DNA of 32,000 bases from Coprobacillaceae bacterium. Lineage in GTDB: Bacteria; Bacillota_I; Bacilli_A; Erysipelotrichales; Coprobacillaceae. Under the pieces are notes generated by a model, which worked only from the letters and a program-made list of their open reading frames with translations, was not told the DNA's origin and searched no databases. Positions 526 through 13,597 of this stretch are shown here, one piece after another. Each line of letters opens with the position of its first letter. Position 1 is the stretch's first letter. The stretch covers positions 2,040,001-2,072,000 of the forward strand of contig OY776328.1 of assembly GCA_963675515.1 (NCBI GenBank), read 5' to 3'. The translations under genes and the position numbers were made by a program.

Positions 526-1944
526 CTAGAACCGGAAATCCCGGCTTCCTTTGGCTATCTGATTGAGGTTGTCCAAGGCGATTGATTTGACCTTTTCGTT
601 TGGCACCTTTTCGATTTCCTGTTCGATCAGCTTTTCTCCGGTTGCTTTGGTTTCCGGTGATGCGTAGTCCTCGAGATATTCCTTGAGGGTCATCAGGGCA
701 TTTGGATGGCAGCAGTTCTGGATCTGACCGCTTTTGCACAGGCTCATGAACCTATCCCCGGTCCGCCCTTCGCGGTAGCAAGCGGTGCAGAAGCTTGGAA
801 TGTAGCCAAGATCCATCAGCCATTTGACGATCTCGTCAAGGGTCCGCTTGTCGCTGGTGTCAAACTGCTGCGAGTTTTCCTCCTCAGGTTCGGGATCGGC
901 ATAACCCCCGACGCTTGTTTTCGAACCGCCGCTGATCTGGGAAACCCCAAGTTCAAGCACCTTTTCTCGGCATTCCTTGCTTTCCCTGGTCGACACGATC
1001 ATCCCGGTGTAAGGAACGGCGATCCTGATGCAGGCGACAATCTTCGCGAATGTCTCATCATCGATTCCGTTTTCAAACTCGGTCGGGTCGATATCGTCAG
1101 CCTGGCGGATCCGCGGCACTGAAATGGTGTGCGGTCCGACCCCAAAAGCTGCTTCAAGATGCTGTGCATGCATAAGCAAACCGGCGAATTCATAACGGTA
1201 AAGCTCCAGTCCAAAAAGAACACCAAGCCCGACATCGTCGATGCCACCTTCCATTGCCCGGTCCATCGCTTCGGTATGGTAGGCGTAGTTATGCTTAGGT
1301 CCGGTCGGATGAAGCTTTTCATAGCTTTCCTTGTTGTATGTTTCCTGGAAGAGGATATAAGTCCCGATTCCGGCGTCCTTGAGCTTGCGGTAGTCCTCAA
1401 CTGTCGTTGCTGCAATATTCACATTGACCCGGCGGATGGCCCCGTTTTTATGTTTGATGCGATAAATTGTATCGATGCACTCAAGGATATATTCGATCGG
1501 GTTGTTTACCGGGTCTTCCCCGGCTTCAAGGGCGAGCCGCTTGTGGCCCATGTCCTGGAGGGCGATCACTTCCTTCTCGATTTCCGCCTGGGTCATCTTC
1601 TTGCGGGCGATTGTCTTGTTTTTGAGATGGTACGGGCAATAGACACAGCCGTTGATACAGTAGTTTGAAAGATAAAGCGGTGCGAACATCACGATCCGGT
1701 TGCCATAGAAATCCTGCTTGATTTGTCTGGCCAGGTCGTAGATCTCCTGGTTTTTCTCTTCAATTTCGCAATCGAGCAGAACCGCCGCCTCGCGGTGGCT
1801 CAGGCCCTTGCGAAGTCTTGCTTTGGCGATGATGGCATCGATCAGCTCGGCATTGTTTTTGTTTGCCTTGGCATATTCCAAGGTGTCCAGGATTTCCTCA
1901 TGGGAAATGAACTCCTGGGCTTTGGGTGATAATACGTCGTACAT
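526..1944 (-). CDS. hydG: [FeFe]-hydrogenase H-cluster radical-SAM maturase HydG
   Basis: 472-aa ORF with radical-SAM CINGCVYC (CX3CX2C), a ThiH-like body and the cysteine-rich C-terminal motif (CTACYREGRTGDRF..C..CC) typical of HydG. Flanked by hydE and hydF. Confidence 0.93.
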   Translation of the reverse strand: MYDVLSPKAQEFISHEEILDTLEYAKANKNNAELIDAIIAKARLRKGLSHREAAVLLDCEIEEKNQEIYDLARQIKQDFYGNRIVMFAPLYLSNYCINGCVYCPYHLKNKTIARKKMTQAEIEKEVIALQDMGHKRLALEAGEDPVNNPIEYILECIDTIYRIKHKNGAIRRVNVNIAATTVEDYRKLKDAGIGTYILFQETYNKESYEKLHPTGPKHNYAYHTEAMDRAMEGGIDDVGLGVLFGLELYRYEFAGLLMHAQHLEAAFGVGPHTISVPRIRQADDIDPTEFENGIDDETFAKIVACIRIAVPYTGMIVSTRESKECREKVLELGVSQISGGSKTSVGGYADPEPEEENSQQFDTSDKRTLDEIVKWLMDLGYIPSFCTACYREGRTGDRFMSLCKSGQIQNCCHPNALMTLKEYLEDYASPETKATGEKLIEQEIEKVPNEKVKSIALDNLNQIAKGSRDFRF

Positions 1945-3876: not shown

Positions 3877-5046
3877 TTATTTGAGTTCCGATTCGTCAAA
3901 CGTGATGTTTTCAGATAACAGTTTATAAATTACTCTTATTAGTTTTCTAATCGAATGTCCTTGAGCGCAGCGATGTGATTTACCTTGAGAACGTTTTAGG
4001 TTATAATAACTATTGAAAGTGGAGTTGTGGGTGCATACTGGAAGAATGCATTGGTAAAGTGTCTTTCTCAAATAACGTGAACCACGTTTTGACAAAGCAG
4101 TTTGTGGGGCGTTGTATTCTCCGGATTGATATGTTCCAGGATCAACACCTGCAAAACCGATAACTTTAGCTGGGGAGCTAAAATTGTCGAGATCCCCAAT
4201 TTCACTTAATATTGACATTCCTGAGTATATACCAATGCCAGGGATAGTAAAGATAGGAGAATTTAGTGCGATGGCTAGTTCTTCTATTTTTTTATCCACT
4301 ATTTCCAAGTGCTGCTCAGATAAATCAAGGGATTCAATAAGCATTTTGATTTCCATGGTAATTATTTCGTTGTTCTCGCCGATTGATTGTTTAGCTGCTT
4401 CGCGAATTGCCAAGGCATCAACCTTCACAGTTCTACCTTTTCCTTGTTGCCGCAAGACATTTTTAAGATGAGCAAGATTGGCATTGGCTAGATTGTATGA
4501 GTTCCCAAACTCTCTTAAAATAGCCATGTAAGCCCGAGAATACTTGGTTTTGAACCAACTGTTTATTTCAGGAATTACGGTATCAATGCACTTTTGAAGT
4601 CTGTTTTTAAGCTGGTTGATATCTTCAGTAAGTGTTGCGTGATACCGGGTAAGTTCTTTGGCTTGTTTCAATGCCAACTTGCGTTTTGTAACCTTGGTGT
4701 AGTTCTTGTCGAACAGCACAGAGCAGATCAGGAAAGTATCTTTCTTATCGTTTTTGGTCTTCCTGATTTTTCCACGACGCTTGGCATCAGTTGTCAAAGG
4801 ATTTATCATCCCGACTTCGTAGCTGTTTGATACTAGAAAATTTACGATGTTGTCACCGTAGTGACCTGTCGCCTCTAGTCCGACAATATGCCTTGAAGAA
4901 TTGAATTTTCTTGTGTTTTTAAGAAATAAGTCAAATCCATTACGGCTATTGGTGAAGAAAAAAGGTTCGACCAACACTTCGCCATTTGAGTCAACAACGC
5001 AGGCACAGTGTTTGAATTTACCTACGTCAATACCGATGTAATACAT
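3877..5046 (-). CDS. IS110-family transposase / bridge recombinase (DEDD RuvC-like domain plus C-terminal Tnp domain)
   Basis: MYYIGIDVGKFKH.., GLEATGHY, then a C-terminal IPGIGIYSG..LSEIGD..F..FAGVDPGTYQSG..SKRGSRYLR. I moved the start from the track's TTG at 5130 to ATG 5046, which begins the conserved MYYIGIDVGK N-terminus and has an AAAGGA RBS. Confidence 0.9.
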   Translation of the reverse strand: MYYIGIDVGKFKHCACVVDSNGEVLVEPFFFTNSRNGFDLFLKNTRKFNSSRHIVGLEATGHYGDNIVNFLVSNSYEVGMINPLTTDAKRRGKIRKTKNDKKDTFLICSVLFDKNYTKVTKRKLALKQAKELTRYHATLTEDINQLKNRLQKCIDTVIPEINSWFKTKYSRAYMAILREFGNSYNLANANLAHLKNVLRQQGKGRTVKVDALAIREAAKQSIGENNEIITMEIKMLIESLDLSEQHLEIVDKKIEELAIALNSPIFTIPGIGIYSGMSILSEIGDLDNFSSPAKVIGFAGVDPGTYQSGEYNAPQTALSKRGSRYLRKTLYQCILPVCTHNSTFNSYYNLKRSQGKSHRCAQGHSIRKLIRVIYKLLSENITFDESELK

Positions 5047-5297
5047 GATAACACGTCCTTTCGTAATAGGTGAGATGTGATATATCCACATACAAGGTAT
5101 CAAAGATCCTGGTGCAAAATACAAGTTCAAAGACTTATCTAACTAATTTCAATTCAGATACGAAGATGTGGCAATTTCCTCCTCGAGGTAGTCAAGCTAC
5201 AGGAATAAAACATCAAAGTACACATTCACAATTCAATTCTATAACAAAAATAAAAGAAAGGAAAATGTATATCATAAATTGACTACTAGATAAGTCA
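5047..5297 (-). ncRNA. Candidate IS110 bridge RNA region (5' non-coding end of the element)
   Basis: About 250 nt upstream of the recombinase with no credible ORF. Contains several local hairpins, plus a 10-nt perfect complement between 5132-5141 and 5287-5296. The family is known to encode a structured guide RNA in this position. Confidence 0.4.
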
Positions 5298-5304
5298 TTT
5301 ATAA

Positions 5305-5940
<636 letters not shown>

Positions 5941-6610
5941 TAGGCATGAAATGGGAGGATTTTCCAATAGGAAAATCACAACTGAATATTCAATACTTGG
6001 AATGATGGCTGTCATGTTAGCCTGAAACAAGTAGTCTGATACTCCTACACGCATGAGGTTATAACAGTAAAATTATGTGTGAAGCTAGGTGAAGTCGGCT
6101 GAACAATACCTAAGTGATATATCATATGGTAAAGGATAGGCCGGGACGCTATAAATTATCTATGGTGAGAATGTCCGTGTAAGGACTGACGAAACTGCGA
6201 ATGTACGGGTCTAGAAAGTCGTGCTATTGAAAGGTGGCATGTTGCGTGCGCAACGATGAATATCGAAAAGTAAGAATCGTTGATATGAAATTCGAGATAC
6301 TCGACAATGAGGGTATAATTCATCAGGCTCATAGCAGGAACCTAAGGATAAATGTAAAGCTAGAATATTTGGAACGTTGTAAGCGAGAAACGTCTATTAA
6401 ACGACTGTTATCGGGACGGTAACTATAAGTGTAAACGAAGTGTTTTTATTCTCGTGAAAGTAGGGGCACAGTACCGATGAAGCCACGAAAAATGGTGGAG
6501 GGATAGCCCCAAGTCTGGTTCTTTAAAAATCAGTTACAGTTAAATGAAGCTCACAGGGTCTGATAAGATGATGGGAAACAATTGTTCTAAACGAAAGGAA
6601 TAATCCATCG

Positions 6611-8405
6611 GTGAGCACGGGATTACGAAACAACGAATATTACAGTATGCAGGAAACTTTTGACTGGTTGTATCAAATGAGTTTAAACAATGATACTTAC
6701 GGGATAGATCTTTATAATCTGGTGATATCCAGGAACAATATACTCCTCGCCTATCGAAACATCAAAAGCAACACCGGAAGTCACACTAAAGGCACTGACG
6801 GCCTTACTATTGATGATTACAAGATAGAAAACGTTGAGAAATTTATTCAGGATATTAGACTATCGCTATTGGACTATAAACCAAAAACGGTAAGAAGAGT
6901 AGAAATACCTAAACCTAATGGAAAATTACGACCATTGGGAATACCAACGATGCATGACAGACTGATTCAACAGATGTTCAAACAGATACTTGAACCAATC
7001 TGCGAAGCGAAGTTTCATAAGCATTCATATGGATTTAGAGCCAATCGCTCAACCCATAATGCTTTGTCAAGATGTTGCCATATCGCCAATATGACGCACA
7101 ATCACTATGTTGTTGATTTGGATATCGAATCGTTCTTTGACAATGTCAATCATACCAAGTTAATCAAACAACTTTGGAATATCGGCATCAAGGATAATCA
7201 GGTACTGACGATTATAAGTAGAATGCTGAAAGCTCCCATCAAAGGAGTAGGTGTCCCACACTGTGGGACACCACAGGGCAGGAGTGCTTTCGCCATTACT
7301 TTCAAACGTAGTGTTGAACGATCTGGACTGGTGGATAAGCAATCAATGGGAAACATTCAATGCTGATTATAAATGTCCATATAAGTATAGAGTACTCAAG
7401 AAAACCAATCTAAAAGAAATGTATGCGGTAAGGTATGCCGATGACGCACGAGTCTTCACTTGCAGTTATAAAAATGCGGTAAGGATATATCATGCGGTCA
7501 AGGAATATCTGAAGAATGAACTTAAACTTAATGTTTCACCTGAAAAGTCAAAGATTACCAATCTAAGGAAACGTAGGTCGGACTATTTGGGGTTTGAAAT
7601 GAAGCTGGTACCAAAGCGCAAGAAGTACGTTGCGAATACCTTTGTATCGGCGAAAAGTAAAATAAAAATCAAAGCGGAAATAAGGAAAAGAGTTATCGAG
7701 ATACAGCGTCATACAATTTCCAAGAATATCCACAATTATAATTCATATATACTGGGGATAAGAAATTATTATGAAGCTGCAACACATGTAAATATAGATT
7801 TTAGAAATGTTTACCATCAGACGCTCAAGACCTTGTACAACCGATTGAAACCAATAGCTAAATATGAAGTACCCAGGAGTCCCCCACCGTTGTATAAGAA
7901 GTTATTTAAGAATAACTATCGCACATTCACGATTGGAGCCATTTCATTGTTTCCACTGGCGGATACGCAGTGGAAATTGAAGACAAACTTCAATCAAAAC
8001 ATATGCAACTATACCCAAGAGGGGCGCAAATTAGTTTATAAACGATTAGAAAATAATGTAACCTCAGTTATGAAGAGGTTGCTGGAACTGCCAATTGGAA
8101 ACGGAAGTGTGGAATATCGGGATAACACAATCTCAAAGTATTCAATGCAAAAAGGGCGTTGTGGAATCACCCAGTTGTTTCTAACGGCCGAGGAAATACA
8201 CTGTCATCACATTGTTTCCGTTGGAGATGGTGGAACCGATAATTTTGACAATCTAATCATTATTCACAAAGAAGTACATAAACTAATACACGGTAATAAT
8301 CAGGAAACTGAAAAAACGCTATTGAAAAAGTTCAATCTAAACAAAACACAGCTTAAAAAACTGAACATGTTGCGTAAGAGATGTAATTTAACTGAAATAA
8401 ATTAA
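6611..8405 (+). pseudogene. Group II intron-encoded reverse transcriptase/maturase with C-terminal HNH endonuclease domain, split by a +1 frameshift at ~7280
   Basis: Frame 1 (6611-7366) carries RT motifs up to ..GVPHCGTPQG. Frame 2 (7251-8405) continues GVLSPLLSNVVLNDLDWW, RYADDARVF (YADD), the maturase region, and HCHHIVSVGDGGTDNFDNLIIIHKEVHKLIH (HNH). Confidence 0.85.
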
Positions 8406-8422
8406 AGAAGAATTAGATGGAA

Positions 8423-8454
8423 CGCCGTGTGCGGTGAAAGTCGCATGCACGGTG
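8423..8454 (+). ncRNA. Group II intron domain V
   Basis: CGCCGUGU-GCGGU-GAAA-GUCGC-AU-GCACGGUG: two helices, a GAAA tetraloop and a 2-nt bulge, with a CGC catalytic triad. Lies ~50 nt before the 3' splice site. Confidence 0.8.
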
Positions 8455-8504
8455 TGGAGCGGGGGAAAAGATGGAGATAACATCAAAGTCTTACCTATCG
8501 CTAT

Positions 8505-9388
<884 letters not shown>

Positions 9389-9392
9389 CAGC

Positions 9393-9421
9393 AAAAAAGT
9401 CGAAATTTTCGACTTTTTTTG
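9393..9421. terminator. Bidirectional intrinsic terminator after the GH1 gene
   Basis: AAAAAAGUCGAAAAUUUUCGACUUUUUUU: a perfect palindrome flanked by A- and U-tracts. Confidence 0.85.
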
Positions 9422-9438: not shown

Positions 9439-9819
9439 CTACTGATATCTATTTGATATTGCCTTGTCCGCCCTAAGGGCCCACAGGGTCCAGATTGGCC
9501 CGACCAGATCAAGGGCCGAGATCAAAAAGATATTGGGTCCAGACCAGCCAATTATGAAGAATACGACTGTCCCTAAGAAGAATATCAGCCTTCCAACCAC
9601 CGTGAATATGACCAACGGCCTTAGATTGGTCCGGCCGATAAGCATGTAATACAGGCTCAGGACAATCACCAGCAAGCCCAGGGTCCGGGCAATGACCAGA
9701 TCAAAGCCCACTTGAAACCTGAGCAAACCAAGAAACTGGCTGGGAAACAACATCAGGATGCTTCCGATCGCCAGCAAGATCAAAGCATCGACAAAGACGC
9801 TGAATGCCGCTTTTTTCAT
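9439..9819 (-). CDS. Hypothetical small integral membrane protein (about 4 TM segments)
   Basis: Hydrophobic ORF. Start moved to MKKAAF (ATG 9819), which has GGAGG 5 nt upstream. Confidence 0.6.
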   Translation of the reverse strand: MKKAAFSVFVDALILLAIGSILMLFPSQFLGLLRFQVGFDLVIARTLGLLVIVLSLYYMLIGRTNLRPLVIFTVVGRLIFFLGTVVFFIIGWSGPNIFLISALDLVGPIWTLWALRADKAISNRYQ

Positions 9820-9931
9820 TTTAACCTCCATTTGACATAATTCCTTCAAAAGTGCACCAGTGCATCAATCAAGGAAATTCCAAAATATCACCGAATCAAT
9901 TTGTCTGGTTTGAATGTTTTCTTAGCGCCAC

Positions 9932-10291
9932 TTACGTTTTTTTCTTCCTGATCTGCCAGTTGCGCCAGTACAGCCATCCGACCAGGAATGCCGGCCCGGC
10001 GATGGTCATGCTCCACGAAATGGCAATGTACCATTGCAGGTCGCCGCCTATCACGTTGGAAAAAACAAGTCCGATATAGGCCAACCCCGCCCCAAAAAAA
10101 CCCAGCGCCCCGATGATCTCATGGTTCCAGGCAAGAGAGATCACAATAAGCAAAACTATTGAAGGTATGTTATGCATCAACATCCCAACCAACAGTTCAC
10201 CAATGCCCATTCCGGGCTGGTATACATCAAGTGAAAACAGGAACAGGAAGCCGACAAACGCCAAGGCAAGCATACGTGGCAACCATAACAT
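9932..10291 (-). CDS. Hypothetical integral membrane protein
   Basis: Hydrophobic ORF. The internal ATG at 10291 (MLWLPRML..) is preceded by GGGAGG; the track start at 10303 overlaps that RBS. Confidence 0.6.
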   Translation of the reverse strand: MLWLPRMLALAFVGFLFLFSLDVYQPGMGIGELLVGMLMHNIPSIVLLIVISLAWNHEIIGALGFFGAGLAYIGLVFSNVIGGDLQWYIAISWSMTIAGPAFLVGWLYWRNWQIRKKKT

Positions 10292-10332
10292 TGAACCTCC
10301 CATGACTGAAAGTCACGGGATTCTTGGGAACA

Positions 10333-10530
10333 GAGCTTACTTGATTATGGTGCATCCACCATAATCAGCGGTTTCTCTTCTTTACCAAGCTATCCCCGTA
10401 GTCCCTACGGTTAAGTAGTTGTTTATGTTGATGCTATTATGCGCAGTCCTTCTTTCAGGATGTTCTTGCTTGCATTTATGTCTCGGTCATTGGTACTGCC
10501 ACAATTAGGACAAGTCCATTCCCTGATGTG
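10333..10530 (-). ncRNA. Expected TnpB omega RNA (reRNA) scaffold region: 3' end of tnpB plus the right end
   Basis: Placed by analogy with characterised TnpB loci. The sequence shows a 6-bp hairpin (CCGUAG-GGA-CUACGG) and a 10-bp perfect hairpin (GAUUAUGGUG-GAUG-CACCAUAAUC) directly after the tnpB stop. Confidence 0.45.
10343..10366 (-). repeat. Right-end subterminal hairpin of the IS200/IS605 element
   Basis: gattatggtg / caccataatc: 10-bp perfect stem with a 4-nt loop. Confidence 0.7.
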
Positions 10531-11571
10531 GAGTGGTTTCTTGCAATCCTTGTGGCCACATTTATTGCATATCTGGCTGGACTCATACCAGCGGTCCACC
10601 TTGATGATTTCTCTGCCATACCATTCAGCCTTGTAGATAAGCTTAGCCACAAATGCCGACCAGGAAACATCGGATATGCTTTTAGCCAGTCTATGATTAC
10701 GCAACATTCCTAATGTGTTCAAGTCTTCTATGCAGATTACATCGTGGTTTTTGATGATCTGGGTTGTCAACTTGTTCAAAAAGTCATTGCGTTGGTTCAT
10801 TACCTTTTCATGGAGCAATGCCACTTTGCGTCTTTGTTTCTGGTAGTTTCTTGCTTCAAGAAGATTGATTCCTTTGCTTTTGGCTAGGCGTGCCCGTCTT
10901 GACAGCTTTTTCTGTTCGCGGATTAGTTTCTTTTCCATCTTGCCAGTGAACTTATGATTTGCGACTTTTCTGCCATTTGAAAATGTCGCGAAGTCACGGA
11001 TGCCAAGGTCAATACCGATAATCGAATTCGCTTTGGGCAATTGTTCGATCTTTTCTTCAACAACAATTGCAACAAAGTATTTGCCACTGGGATTTTTCCG
11101 GATTGTCGCCTTAATTATCCTTCCCTTGATCTCCCGACTCTTGGCGAACCTTACCAGACCTAACTTAGGCAACTTGATCGACTTGCCGATTACAGCGATA
11201 CTGTTGTTCACATTCTTTGTAGTGTAGCTTTGAACCGGATTCTTCTTGCTCTTGTATCGCGGGTGGCTGTTTTGCTTTTTAAAGAACCTCGCGAAAGAAT
11301 CGGAAAGATTCTTCACCGATGATTGGAGGGCGATGCTGTCTACTTCCTTTAGCCATTCCGTATTATCATCCCGTTTCATTTGAGGAAGCATGGCTGAGCA
11401 GGAATTGTAAGACAGACCTTTACCGGAATTGACATACGCCTCATTCCACAGATTAAGGAAATGATTGTAGACAAATCGGGCACATCCGATCGTTTTACAG
11501 ATCAGTATTACCTGTTCACTATCAGGGTAGATCCTGAACTTGTATGCCTTATGGTGCAACATCATCATCAC
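10423..11571 (-). CDS. tnpB: TnpB, RNA-guided RuvC-like endonuclease (IS605 OrfB family)
   Basis: YKFRIYP N-terminus, RuvC residues in IGIDLG, ICIEDL and NDRDINAS, and a zinc finger CNKCGH..CPNCG. The exact start among GTG/ATG codons at 11571-11562 is uncertain. Confidence 0.92.
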   Translation of the reverse strand: MMMMLHHKAYKFRIYPDSEQVILICKTIGCARFVYNHFLNLWNEAYVNSGKGLSYNSCSAMLPQMKRDDNTEWLKEVDSIALQSSVKNLSDSFARFFKKQNSHPRYKSKKNPVQSYTTKNVNNSIAVIGKSIKLPKLGLVRFAKSREIKGRIIKATIRKNPSGKYFVAIVVEEKIEQLPKANSIIGIDLGIRDFATFSNGRKVANHKFTGKMEKKLIREQKKLSRRARLAKSKGINLLEARNYQKQRRKVALLHEKVMNQRNDFLNKLTTQIIKNHDVICIEDLNTLGMLRNHRLAKSISDVSWSAFVAKLIYKAEWYGREIIKVDRWYESSQICNKCGHKDCKKPLHIREWTCPNCGSTNDRDINASKNILKEGLRIIAST

Positions 11572-11572
11572 C

Positions 11573-11977
11573 TTATTTCTTCTTCTGAGTTTTTATATAA
11601 TCTATTATCTGCTTTTGAGTATTATCACTAACGGTGGCTACGAAATAGCTGGGATTCCACAAATGACCTTTCCATAGACGACTTTTAAGCTCAGGGTGTT
11701 GCTTGAACAGAAATCTTGCAGATAACCCTTTGAACGCTTTTACCATACTGGGAATATGGTGTTGGGGCTTGCAATCGATAAGCAAGTGGATATGGTCCTT
11801 ATCCGATTCCATTTCAATGATATTTATGTCATTATCAGCTGCAATCTTAGTCAACAATTTCTTGACATCATCGTCAACTTGACCAGTCAAAATATCGTGA
11901 CGGTATTTCACACACCAGACCAGATGGTATTGAATCGAATAGACATAACCACGTCCGTAATTAATATCAGCCATCAT
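11573..11977 (-). CDS. tnpA: IS200/IS605-family Y1 (HUH) transposase TnpA
   Basis: 134 aa with YHLVWCVKYR, HUH motif HIHLL, and the catalytic Tyr region IIDYIKTQ. GAGGTG RBS. Confidence 0.92.
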   Translation of the reverse strand: MMADINYGRGYVYSIQYHLVWCVKYRHDILTGQVDDDVKKLLTKIAADNDINIIEMESDKDHIHLLIDCKPQHHIPSMVKAFKGLSARFLFKQHPELKSRLWKGHLWNPSYFVATVSDNTQKQIIDYIKTQKKK

Positions 11978-12122
11978 TTATCACCTCATATACATTTTAA
12001 CATATGGTTGCAAAAAATTACAGCTTTAAAGCACTTTTAGTCCATAATTTTAACAATATATGTAGCCAATAGAACACAGTTGAAAAGAGTCACAAAAAAG
12101 TCGATTCATCTCCACGACTAAA

Positions 12123-12140
12123 GTCGCGAGTGTTCTCGAC
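12123..12140 (-). repeat. Left-end imperfect hairpin of the IS200/IS605 element
   Basis: Minus strand GUCGAG-AACA-CUCGCGAC (stem with a 2-nt bulge). A second hairpin, AGUCG..CGACU plus a U-tract, lies at 12119-12099. Confidence 0.5.
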
Positions 12141-12279
12141 CAGTTAATAAATTTTCTCGATTTTTCATCAAATCCACCTTCTTTATCCAACGTAGTGAAA
12201 AAATCAAAGTCCAAAAACCATTCAAGATTCCACCAACCGATTAAAAAAATTCGCAGTTAAATATTCCGTTGCACTCGGT

Positions 12280-13465
12280 CTATCCATTCGCTGGCGGGGA
12301 TCGCATCGCCAATAACAACTGTGAAAGTTGGGCTGTGCCCCAGATTTTTGGCACCGGATAAGTCGGATTAGCTTCAGCCAGGGCCCGTTTGATTATTGTC
12401 CCAAAATCTTCTTCCTTGAGCATTTCCAGGTTTTCAGGGATGCCAAACGACCGGTTCCACGCCCGCAAGGAATCGATGAAATTCCGGGCTTTCGCCTCAT
12501 TGCTGTCACCGTCAATCCCGACCAGATCAGCCAATTCCGCCAGTTTTTTCTCCGAACTTTTTCCATAACGCTCCAGGACGTACGGCATTGTGATCGAGAT
12601 CGCCAATCCGTGGGGCAATCGCATGCACATAACCGACATAGGCATTCCTGAAAGCAACCCCCGCATAATACGCTACCAGAAGCATGTTTTGGCGAACTTG
12701 GAGATTGTTCCCGTCCTGAGCTGCCAGTTCCAGATTGTCATAGATGATCTTGATTGCCTTGGTGTCATTGCGTTTGGCTTTGGGTGATACAAACCGGTTT
12801 GTGTAGGCTTCAACGCTATGGCACAAGGCATCGATGCCCGTAAGATAGGTTTGCTCAAGAGCAAGCGAAATGGTCAAAACCGGATCAAGGATGGCATATC
12901 CAGGTATCAGGCACAGATCATTTATCGTATACTTGTAATGGGTCTGGTCATCAGTGATCACGGCGGTGGCCGAAGCCTTTGAACCTGTTCCGGCCGTGGC
13001 GGGAACGGCATAAATCGGTGGCAGTCTTCTCCTGATTTTAAGGATGCCGCTCATTTTTTTCAGGGGCCGGCCCGGCTTAACAATCCGGATACTAACCATC
13101 TTGGCGCAATCAATGACCGATCCTCCGCCAATCGCGATGATTGCATTGCATCGGTTTTCCCGGTAAAGTCTGGCCGCCTCATCACAGCAGCTGATCATCG
13201 GATCGGGTGGCACCGCACCATAGACTATAACCTTGATGTTCGCATCTTCCATATCCTTGATCAGTTTGGCCAGGGTGCCACGTCTGACAAAACCGTTTGT
13301 GGTGATAATCTCAACGCGGTCATTGCCATTCGCTTTGAGAAGTTCCGGCAACTTGTAGATGCTGTTGGGACCCACTAATAACTTGGAGTCCCGGGGATTT
13401 ATAACTACCATGACAAAGCTCATGACCATCTGGCGGATTCTGTAATATAGATATCTGATTCGCAT
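12280..13465 (-). pseudogene. Iron-containing alcohol dehydrogenase, disrupted (internal deletion plus frameshift at ~12614-12616)
   Basis: The N-terminal frame has AIGGGSVIDCAK and PATAGTGS.. up to ..GYVHAIA. The C-terminal frame begins immediately with PHGLAISITMPYVLERYG. About 9 residues normally lie between these motifs, including the second His of HxxxH, and they are missing. Confidence 0.8.
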
Positions 13466-13597
13466 ATAATTTACCTTCCTCAATTGCCTTTGAGGCAAAA
13501 TTTGAATCAATCATGTGGAAATTGGCCGTAGCCATCTCCGGGCCAACGATGTTGCAACAAATAATATGTAATTCTGCATAAAGACAATACTAGATTG

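Follow-up and report, generated by a model that had tools for sequence, protein, structure and literature searches.

We have analysed a 32,000-nucleotide stretch of a Coprobacillaceae bacterium genome (GenBank assembly GCA_963675515.1, contig OY776328.1, positions 2,040,001 to 2,072,000), hereafter the window, in whose own numbering all positions are given. On its minus strand lie a transposase gene, tnpA, and directly adjoining it the gene of a putative RNA-guided nuclease, tnpB, followed by a structured stretch that runs up to a membrane-protein gene of the DUF7670 family (Table 1). A first-pass annotation had placed this locus in the IS200/IS605 class of insertion sequences (IS), an assignment that is borne out by the domains of TnpA and TnpB, by both ends and by the target motif. 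Overall, the locus very probably constitutes a complete, autonomous IS200/IS605 element of the IS605 group, similar to ISDra2 and ISGst2, whose right end is predicted to supply a guide RNA (omega RNA). The element spans 12146..10291 on the minus strand (1856 bp) and contains, besides tnpA and then tnpB, a hairpin at the left and at the right end, with TTTAT as target motif and presumptive transposon-adjacent motif (TAM).

Table 1 Features of the element and of its insertion site, with positions written in the direction of reading
Feature	Position	Strand	Remarks
DUF7670 gene, orphaned 5' piece	12168..12147	-	ATG AAA AAT CGA GAA AAT TTA T; Shine-Dalgarno sequence AAGGTGGA upstream
Target motif/TAM, 5'-TTTAT	12151..12147	-	flank directly 5' of the left end; seen in relatives and in a copy on Logan contig L081
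Left end	12146..12100	-	starts TAACTGGTCGAG at 12146; conserved in 11 relatives; homology with the L081 copy begins at the TAM
tnpA, Y1 HUH transposase	11977..11573	-	134 amino acids; Pfam Y1_Tnp, E 1.6e-41
tnpB, predicted RuvC/zinc-finger RNA-guided nuclease	11571..10423	-	380-382 amino acids; stop TAA 10425..10423; Pfam and ISDra2 alignment
Predicted omega-RNA scaffold = right end	10412..10291	-	122 nt; conserved in 54 distinct relatives
Helix P1	10410..10405 with 10401..10396	-	CCGTAG-GGA-CTACGG
Helix P2	10389..10385 with 10327..10323	-	CUUGG with CCAAG
Helix P2b	10378..10375 with 10335..10332	-	AGAG with CUCU
Helix P3	10369..10357 with 10352..10339	-	contains the perfect 11-bp hairpin
Stem 4	10320..10311 with 10307..10298	-	TCCCGTGACT-TTC-AGTCATGGGA; end-adjacent hairpin
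Tail GGUUCAA	10297..10291	-	3' end of the scaffold = element boundary
Predicted guide	10290..10275	-	16 nt, TGTTATGGTTGCCACG; read from the flank; = DUF7670 codons 8-13
DUF7670 membrane-protein gene, remainder	10290..9932 (ORF 10303..9932)	-	Pfam DUF7670, E 3.7e-21

TnpB carries the Pfam domains HTH_OrfB_IS605, OrfB_IS605 and Cas12f1-like_TNB, and more than 5000 database proteins match it at E <= 1e-100. The open reading frame (ORF) given for it earlier stands, while the start used for its 382 amino acids is a GTG that itself falls within the Shine-Dalgarno sequence; in the public call, the identical protein P0132, there are 380. ISDra2 of Deinococcus radiodurans, with the same order of tnpA and then tnpB, provides the best-matching solved structures for both proteins. 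In an end-to-end alignment with ISDra2 TnpB (PDB 8H1J/8BF8; E ~1e-88, aligned residues 4-376), the RuvC triad D188/E282/D364 corresponds to D191/E278/D361, with the motif pairs IGID188LG/GVD191VG, CIE282DL/GTE278HL and DRD364INAS/DRD361ENAA, and the zinc-finger cysteines are C335/C338/C354/C357. Every residue of the D/E/D triad and of the CxxC..CxxC finger, claimed intact at first reading, is therefore kept. For TnpA, the closest solved structure is 2XM3 (E 7e-47); its HUH motif is H62-I-H64, and the tyrosine of DYIKTQ aligns with that of QKYIESQ. These alignments show the catalytic motifs of both predicted proteins to be intact. A nuclease-dead, domesticated TnpB regulator was considered and rejected, given the intact RuvC triad and the presence of TnpA and both ends.

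On one 2.88-Mb contig, the host genome has at least five TnpB paralogues (P0132-P0136) of 91-100% identity, together with seven or more TnpA variants from one 90% cluster. The high identity of these paralogues suggests a multi-copy IS family that has been active recently. No further copy of the element was found within the window, and a megablast search against plasmids gave only relatives in Enterococcus faecium (~72% identity).

As a separate observation, most relatives in our left-end alignment that carry tnpA largely keep, 5' of this gene, the motif TGTTAAAAT (12002..11994 of the minus strand in the window), which is extended -10-like and lies within CATATGTTAAAAT. This motif probably serves as the promoter of tnpA; a consensus promoter scan had not reported it.

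Limits of the element and the interrupted DUF7670 gene

To locate the ends, we have drawn on the TnpB relatives obtained from a scan of representative genomes, namely 77 loci, all with 49-82% identity save for one distant archaeal match at 32%. The loci come mostly from Bacillota, including Enterococcus, Paenibacillus, Oceanobacillus, Kurthia and one metagenome-assembled genome of the Erysipelotrichaceae. When the regions 3' of the tnpB stop are aligned, they are variable just past the stop and conserved from AACCGTAGG to ...GGTTCAA; a second variant of the right end finishes ...AGTTCAC instead. The stretch AACCGTAGG...GTTCA(A/C) is retained in each of the 54 distinct relatives, and divergence sets in from the very next base. 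Since the homology of the relatives stops there, the right end is placed at 10291, the final A of GGTTCAA in the window.

The left end was aligned in 11 relatives, and the pattern there is TTTAT, then 6-7 variable bases, and then a conserved hairpin region. TTTAT stands at an equal distance from the hairpin in ten of the 11, the eleventh having ATTAT. The hairpin region consists of an outer stem, in which GTCGA (12140..12136) pairs with TCGAC (12104..12100), and an inner imperfect hairpin CTCGCGACT-TT-AGTCGTGGAG (12130..12110), which resembles both the right-end hairpin and the right-end hairpin of an ISDra2-like element from Deinococcus. A TTGAT at 12171..12167 was also tried as the TAM, with a left end starting at 12166, after the model of ISDra2; it was rejected, as the left-end alignment and L081 both point to TTTAT followed by 12146.

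The copy on Logan contig L081 is 89% identical at the DNA level over window positions 12151..10290 and has the same ends in unrelated flanks. With a slash marking the junction, its left side reads ...cttTTTAT/TAACTGGTCGAG and its right side GGGAGGTTCAA/tatcgg. It also carries TTTAT, while the rest of its upstream flank is unrelated to that of the window. In this contig the TTTAT target is the end of the T-tract of a terminator-like hairpin (GGCAGAttgattCTGTCTTTTTAT, 885..920), which lies 3' of a major facilitator superfamily (MFS) transporter gene.

The limits of the element are thus fixed to the nucleotide. There are no terminal inverted repeats; instead, similar imperfect hairpins lie near the left and the right end, on one strand, with GACT..AGTC as their common core and with a G.T pair at an equal position. 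The insertion lies 3' of the fixed 5-nt target and has not duplicated it.

The flanks themselves tell the same. Deleting 12146..10291 joins ...TTA T to TG TTA TGG TTG CCA... and gives a full-length DUF7670 ORF, MKNRENLLLWLPRM... (MKNRENLLLWLPRMLALAF...), with a good ribosome-binding site upstream and with neither an indel nor duplicated target bases. The restored ORF is colinear, at the same spacing, with DUF7670 homologues that start MKNTEKLLYWTPR or MKKTGKLLYWTPR (MKNTEKLLYWTPRILS or MKKTGKLLYWTPRILS). Judged from this restored frame, the element interrupts the DUF7670 gene after codon 7, so that the membrane-protein gene described earlier as a neighbour does adjoin the right end but is not merely adjacent to it.

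The insertion has also created a new start, the one mildly unusual trait of this element. In GGGAGGTTCAA/TG, a Shine-Dalgarno sequence is followed by an ATG that is made up of the last A of the element (10291) and the flanking TG, and the public call P0001 (119 amino acids) starts at exactly this codon. It is conceivable, though rather unlikely, that the right end in this way rebuilds a translation start, and that tnpB and omega-RNA transcripts that read through could express a DUF7670 protein minus seven residues.

These facts bear on a different view of the copy as well, namely that it is fixed or silent, no longer transposes or homes, and acts mainly on DUF7670, e.g., by translation from the new Shine-Dalgarno sequence and ATG. 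The position inside a gene, the 119-amino-acid call from the junction and the frameshifts in nearby genes, which suggest a decaying region, would all fit this view. On the other hand, no damage is seen in any catalytic residue, in either end or in the scaffold, and several paralogues of 91-100% identity argue for recent activity. We consider a silent copy improbable, and it would in any case be compatible with a complete IS605-group element that has a predicted guide-RNA right end.

The conserved structure at the right end

The first-pass annotation had noticed two hairpins past tnpB. The motif CCGUAG-GGA-CUACGG at 10410-10396 is present as described. The perfect hairpin reported at 10366-10343 is also there, with 11 rather than 10 bp (10367..10342; arms 10367..10357 and 10352..10342 around a 4-nt loop). 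Perfect 11-bp hairpins occur at three places in the window against 0.07 expected, while 6-bp hairpins are common by chance (96 in the window versus ~52 in shuffles). The whole 122-nt stretch folds at -49.4 kcal/mol, with z = -5.35 relative to dinucleotide-preserving shuffles.

We have examined covariation at two scopes. For the first 92 nt of the scaffold, with 41 distinct sequences and the four helices P1, P2, P2b and P3, 96.2% of the cells are paired and 7 pairs show compensatory change. For the full length including stem 4, with 16 window-type relatives, the proportion is 97.9%, with 8 compensated pairs. None of 500 shuffles attains the observed paired percentage or covariation score, and sliding the 3' partners by 1-3 columns lowers the pairing to 32-51% in the 92-nt test (30-51% for the slid controls overall). 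RNAalifold independently predicts the same helices. Among them, P3 is the most variable of the family, in sequence as well as in length. In stem 4, the window shows a U-A to C-G exchange compared with most relatives, and its loop is a 3-nt UUC, where the closest relatives have a UUUA tetraloop.

Rfam contains no public omega-RNA model. The covariance model R1, which we built from the 16 window-type relatives with the window left out, gives a single significant match in the window, at 10412..10291 of the minus strand, full length, with 119.7 bits and E 2.3e-27; the left-end hairpin matches it weakly and non-significantly (E 0.25). The covariance-model check suggested at first reading has thus come out positive. 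Conservation in 54 distinct relatives, covariation and the model match together support the view that the region 3' of tnpB is structured, conserved and covarying in the manner of an omega-RNA scaffold, as had been proposed at first reading. This structured part ends exactly at the element boundary, as is the case in ISDra2-type omega RNAs.

The relatives further differ in a telling manner. Enterococcus-type relatives have the same first 92 nt of the scaffold, while stem 4 is replaced by a different, longer hairpin. In these loci (L017-L065 and others), the hairpin CTCCCACTT...AAGTGGTGAG lies ~90-150 nt past the tnpB stop, and the end is TAGTTCAC/. It appears that the TnpA-read part has been exchanged here as a module. 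As stem 4 is swapped while the 92 nt stay, two separately constrained modules can be distinguished, which suggests that stem 4 follows the specificity of TnpA and the rest of the scaffold that of TnpB.

The best comparison is the ISDra2 omega RNA. In its structure by cryo-electron microscopy (cryo-EM), the scaffold is 116 nt long and comprises stems 1-4, with stem 4 capped by a UUUA tetraloop and the tail UUC engaged in a pseudoknot (PMC10097598). In the supplement of that study this RNA ends ...GACUUUAGUC..GUGAGGUUCAA, followed by the guide (PMC10097598). The scaffold of the window is of nearly equal size (122 nt), and its 3' two-thirds fit the ISDra2 plan, with a longer enclosed stem 2/3 region. 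R1 also matches two copies on Deinococcus plasmids at their right ends (E 9.5e-6 and 1e-4); the TnpB of these copies is ~82% identical to that of ISDra2, and the matches cover stem 4 and the tail, ending GGUUCAA. The Deinococcus end GAGAATCACGCGACTTCAGTCGTGTGAGGTTCAA/ aligns with AAGAATCCCGTGACTTTCAGTCATGGGAGGTTCAA/ of the window, both being GAATC-hairpin-GGTTCAA/. A manual count gives 29 identities over the last 34 aligned positions; two stem-pair differences are compensated, and a G.U pair stands at an equal position of the stem. The TnpB of the window lacks the ~30-residue disordered C-terminal tail of ISDra2 TnpB, and therefore the scaffold lies almost wholly 3' of the stop, whereas that of ISDra2 overlaps the coding sequence.

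Could the structure be nothing but a single-stranded DNA right end for TnpA, with no functional guide RNA made? Stem 4 does resemble the left-end hairpin, including the G.T pair at an equal position, and no Rfam family matches. The TnpA of characterised IS200/IS605 elements requires a single end-proximal hairpin and a few flanking bases. Here, however, ~90 further nucleotides (P1, P2, P2b and P3) are conserved and covarying, and the Enterococcus-type relatives exchange stem 4 while keeping the 5' 92 nt. In addition, the architecture and the GGUUCAA tail match the cryo-EM omega RNA of ISDra2, and the adjacent TnpB is intact. A purely DNA-level role is hence very improbable.

Several observations nevertheless weigh against a guide-RNA right end as proposed here. 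First, the covariation of stem 4 could come from the DNA-hairpin constraint alone. Second, the 5' third of the scaffold is a closed 6-bp hairpin with a 3-nt GRA loop, while stem 1 of ISDra2 encloses the strand of the pseudoknot. For the tail UUC (-5..-3), whose pseudoknot partner in the ISDra2 type is an upstream GAA, three candidate upstream partners can be named, i.e., the P1 loop GRA (50/51 sequences), positions 17-19 of J1/2 (51/51) and positions 18-20 (43/51), and covariation cannot choose among these registers because the tail never varies. Third, Rfam 15 gave no family at the gathering threshold over 10150..12250. Fourth, a consensus scan found no sigma-70-like promoter on the minus strand near the scaffold, though an RNA processed from the tnpB mRNA could do without one. 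Finally, metagenome scans for the predicted empty site returned 0 matches. Scans for the exact right end of the element gave 0 matches as well.

The best Rfam match, RF02841 Ref70 (Enterococcus sRNA 70; sRNA, small RNA), covers 10416..10336 of the minus strand below threshold (25.8 bits versus a gathering value of 115, E 0.099), and none of 14 related loci has a threshold match in Rfam, Ref70 included. Ref70 and the scaffold have in common the 5' motif AAC-nGUAGGGACUACnGG-GAnAGC (the P1 motif) and a subsequent long-range stem. With 25.8 bits against 115 the scaffold is not a member of Ref70. Ref70, for its part, may represent the 5' portion of an omega RNA that belongs to a related TnpB element.

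The anatomy given first, with a right end near 10333, ~10 nt past the 11-bp hairpin, and a guide at 10332..10315, is scarcely credible: the hairpin is real and the analogy with IS608, where cleavage falls ~10 nt 3' of the end hairpin, was its only ground, whereas 10332..10291 is conserved in every relative with flanks diverging only past 10291, the supposed guide falls on conserved, covarying parts of the scaffold (3' strand of P2b, 3' strand of P2, 5' arm of stem 4), the 11-bp hairpin belongs to the most variable helix, and restoration of the DUF7670 ORF needs an end at 10291. The relatives, L081 and this ORF all place the end 41-42 nt further, and the span of 10333-10560 leaves out the last 42 nt of the scaffold together with the predicted guide. 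The end was misplaced because the IS608 rule was applied to the internal hairpin P3 and not to stem 4 (10320..10298), which had gone unmentioned.

Predicted guide and relation to characterised elements

The predicted guide begins at the first base 3' of GGTTCAA, i.e., at the point from which the sequences of all relatives diverge; its length of 16 nt is carried over from ISDra2 (PMC8612924). TAM-dependent cleavage of double-stranded DNA by TnpB bound to a stable RNA of about 130-150 nt, with ~16 nt at its 3' end read from the flank, has been demonstrated for ISDra2 (PMC8612924) and for ISGst2 (10.1101/2023.03.14.532601), and for ISGst2 experiments have also shown cleavage of the donor joint and retention of the element (10.1101/2023.03.14.532601).

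By analogy with these experiments, transcription across the 3' end of tnpB would give an RNA of ~140 nt, made up of the scaffold (10412..10291) and ~16 nt of flank (10290..10275), and TnpB would bind this scaffold-plus-guide RNA. TnpA would excise the top strand and rejoin the flanks, the expected donor site being ...GAAAATTTAT/TGTTATGGTTGCC, i.e., TTTAT/TGTTATGG. In this joint, TTTAT/TGTTATGGTTGCCACG would present TAM plus target, so TnpB would cut it, and recombination with the sister copy would restore the element, which would thereby be retained. The filled site would be spared by TnpB, with the right-end sequence GTTCAA occupying the position of the TAM. Stem 4 would probably play a dual role, as a stem of the omega RNA and as the single-stranded DNA hairpin for TnpA near the right-end cleavage site TTCAA/.

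As to the TAM, TTTAT in the window differs from TTGAT in ISDra2 and equals the motif determined by experiment for TnpB2 of ISGst2 (10.1101/2023.03.14.532601, Meers et al.). ISGst2, from Geobacillus stearothermophilus, is likewise of the IS605 family and has a Bacillota host; the comparison made here covers TAM and host phylum. Its TnpA and TnpB read the same motif (10.1101/2023.03.14.532601). IS608 of Helicobacter pylori has the same family layout, being cut outside its two end hairpins (5' of the left one and 3' of the right one), with a right end in TCAA and no target duplication, and differs in its target, TTAC, and in a more distant TnpA (2A6M, E 4e-25). The IS608 rule of 10 nt after the hairpin does fit stem 4 (7 nt) but not the 11-bp hairpin. 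Overall, the element, though itself uncharacterised, is an ordinary representative of the well-studied ISDra2/ISGst2 kind, which is abundant in Bacillota.

Neighbourhood and implications

The surroundings in the window show further mobile elements and broken genes. On the plus strand, a group II intron separates the N-terminal part (5320..5943) of a glycoside hydrolase family 1 (GH1) gene (5320..9388) from the C-terminal part (8516..9388); the intron has Rfam matches at 5977..6155 and 8420..8504. The RT-HNH (RT, reverse transcriptase) protein of the intron is found in two overlapping ORFs (6611..7366 and 7251..8405) and is apparently frameshifted. Just upstream of the GH1 gene lies an IS110-family transposase gene (DEDD_Tnp_IS110 and Transposase_20; 5130..3877, minus strand), so that, with the intron and the IS605 element, three unrelated mobile elements occur within 9 kb. 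An iron-containing alcohol dehydrogenase gene (13510..12280, minus strand), ending ~130 bp upstream of the left end, is in two overlapping ORFs (13510..12527 and 12666..12280), reflecting either a frameshift/pseudogene or an assembly error. Besides the one in P3, perfect hairpins of 11 bp or more occur at 9393..9420 and at about 28844; the former, between the convergent GH1 gene and the gene at 9439..9849, is probably a bidirectional terminator.

Considering that the ISDra2/ISGst2 type of TnpB/omega-RNA element has been well characterised and abounds in Bacillota, the biological gain from this locus is small. Its practical value is an annotation exact to the nucleotide, comprising the limits, the TAM TTTAT, the 122-nt scaffold and the predicted 16-nt guide, for a compact TnpB of 380 amino acids whose scaffold lies nearly all outside the coding sequence. 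A general pitfall is illustrated as well: of the three hairpins found 3' of tnpB in this lineage, the last alone marks where the element ends. For the annotation of DUF7670, the gene is interrupted here, and the start codon of the public 119-amino-acid protein has been made by the insertion. If the right end does rebuild a translation start, the same 3' extension would be both the guide of TnpB and the start of a host mRNA, and the expression of the host gene would be tied to the transcription of the element.

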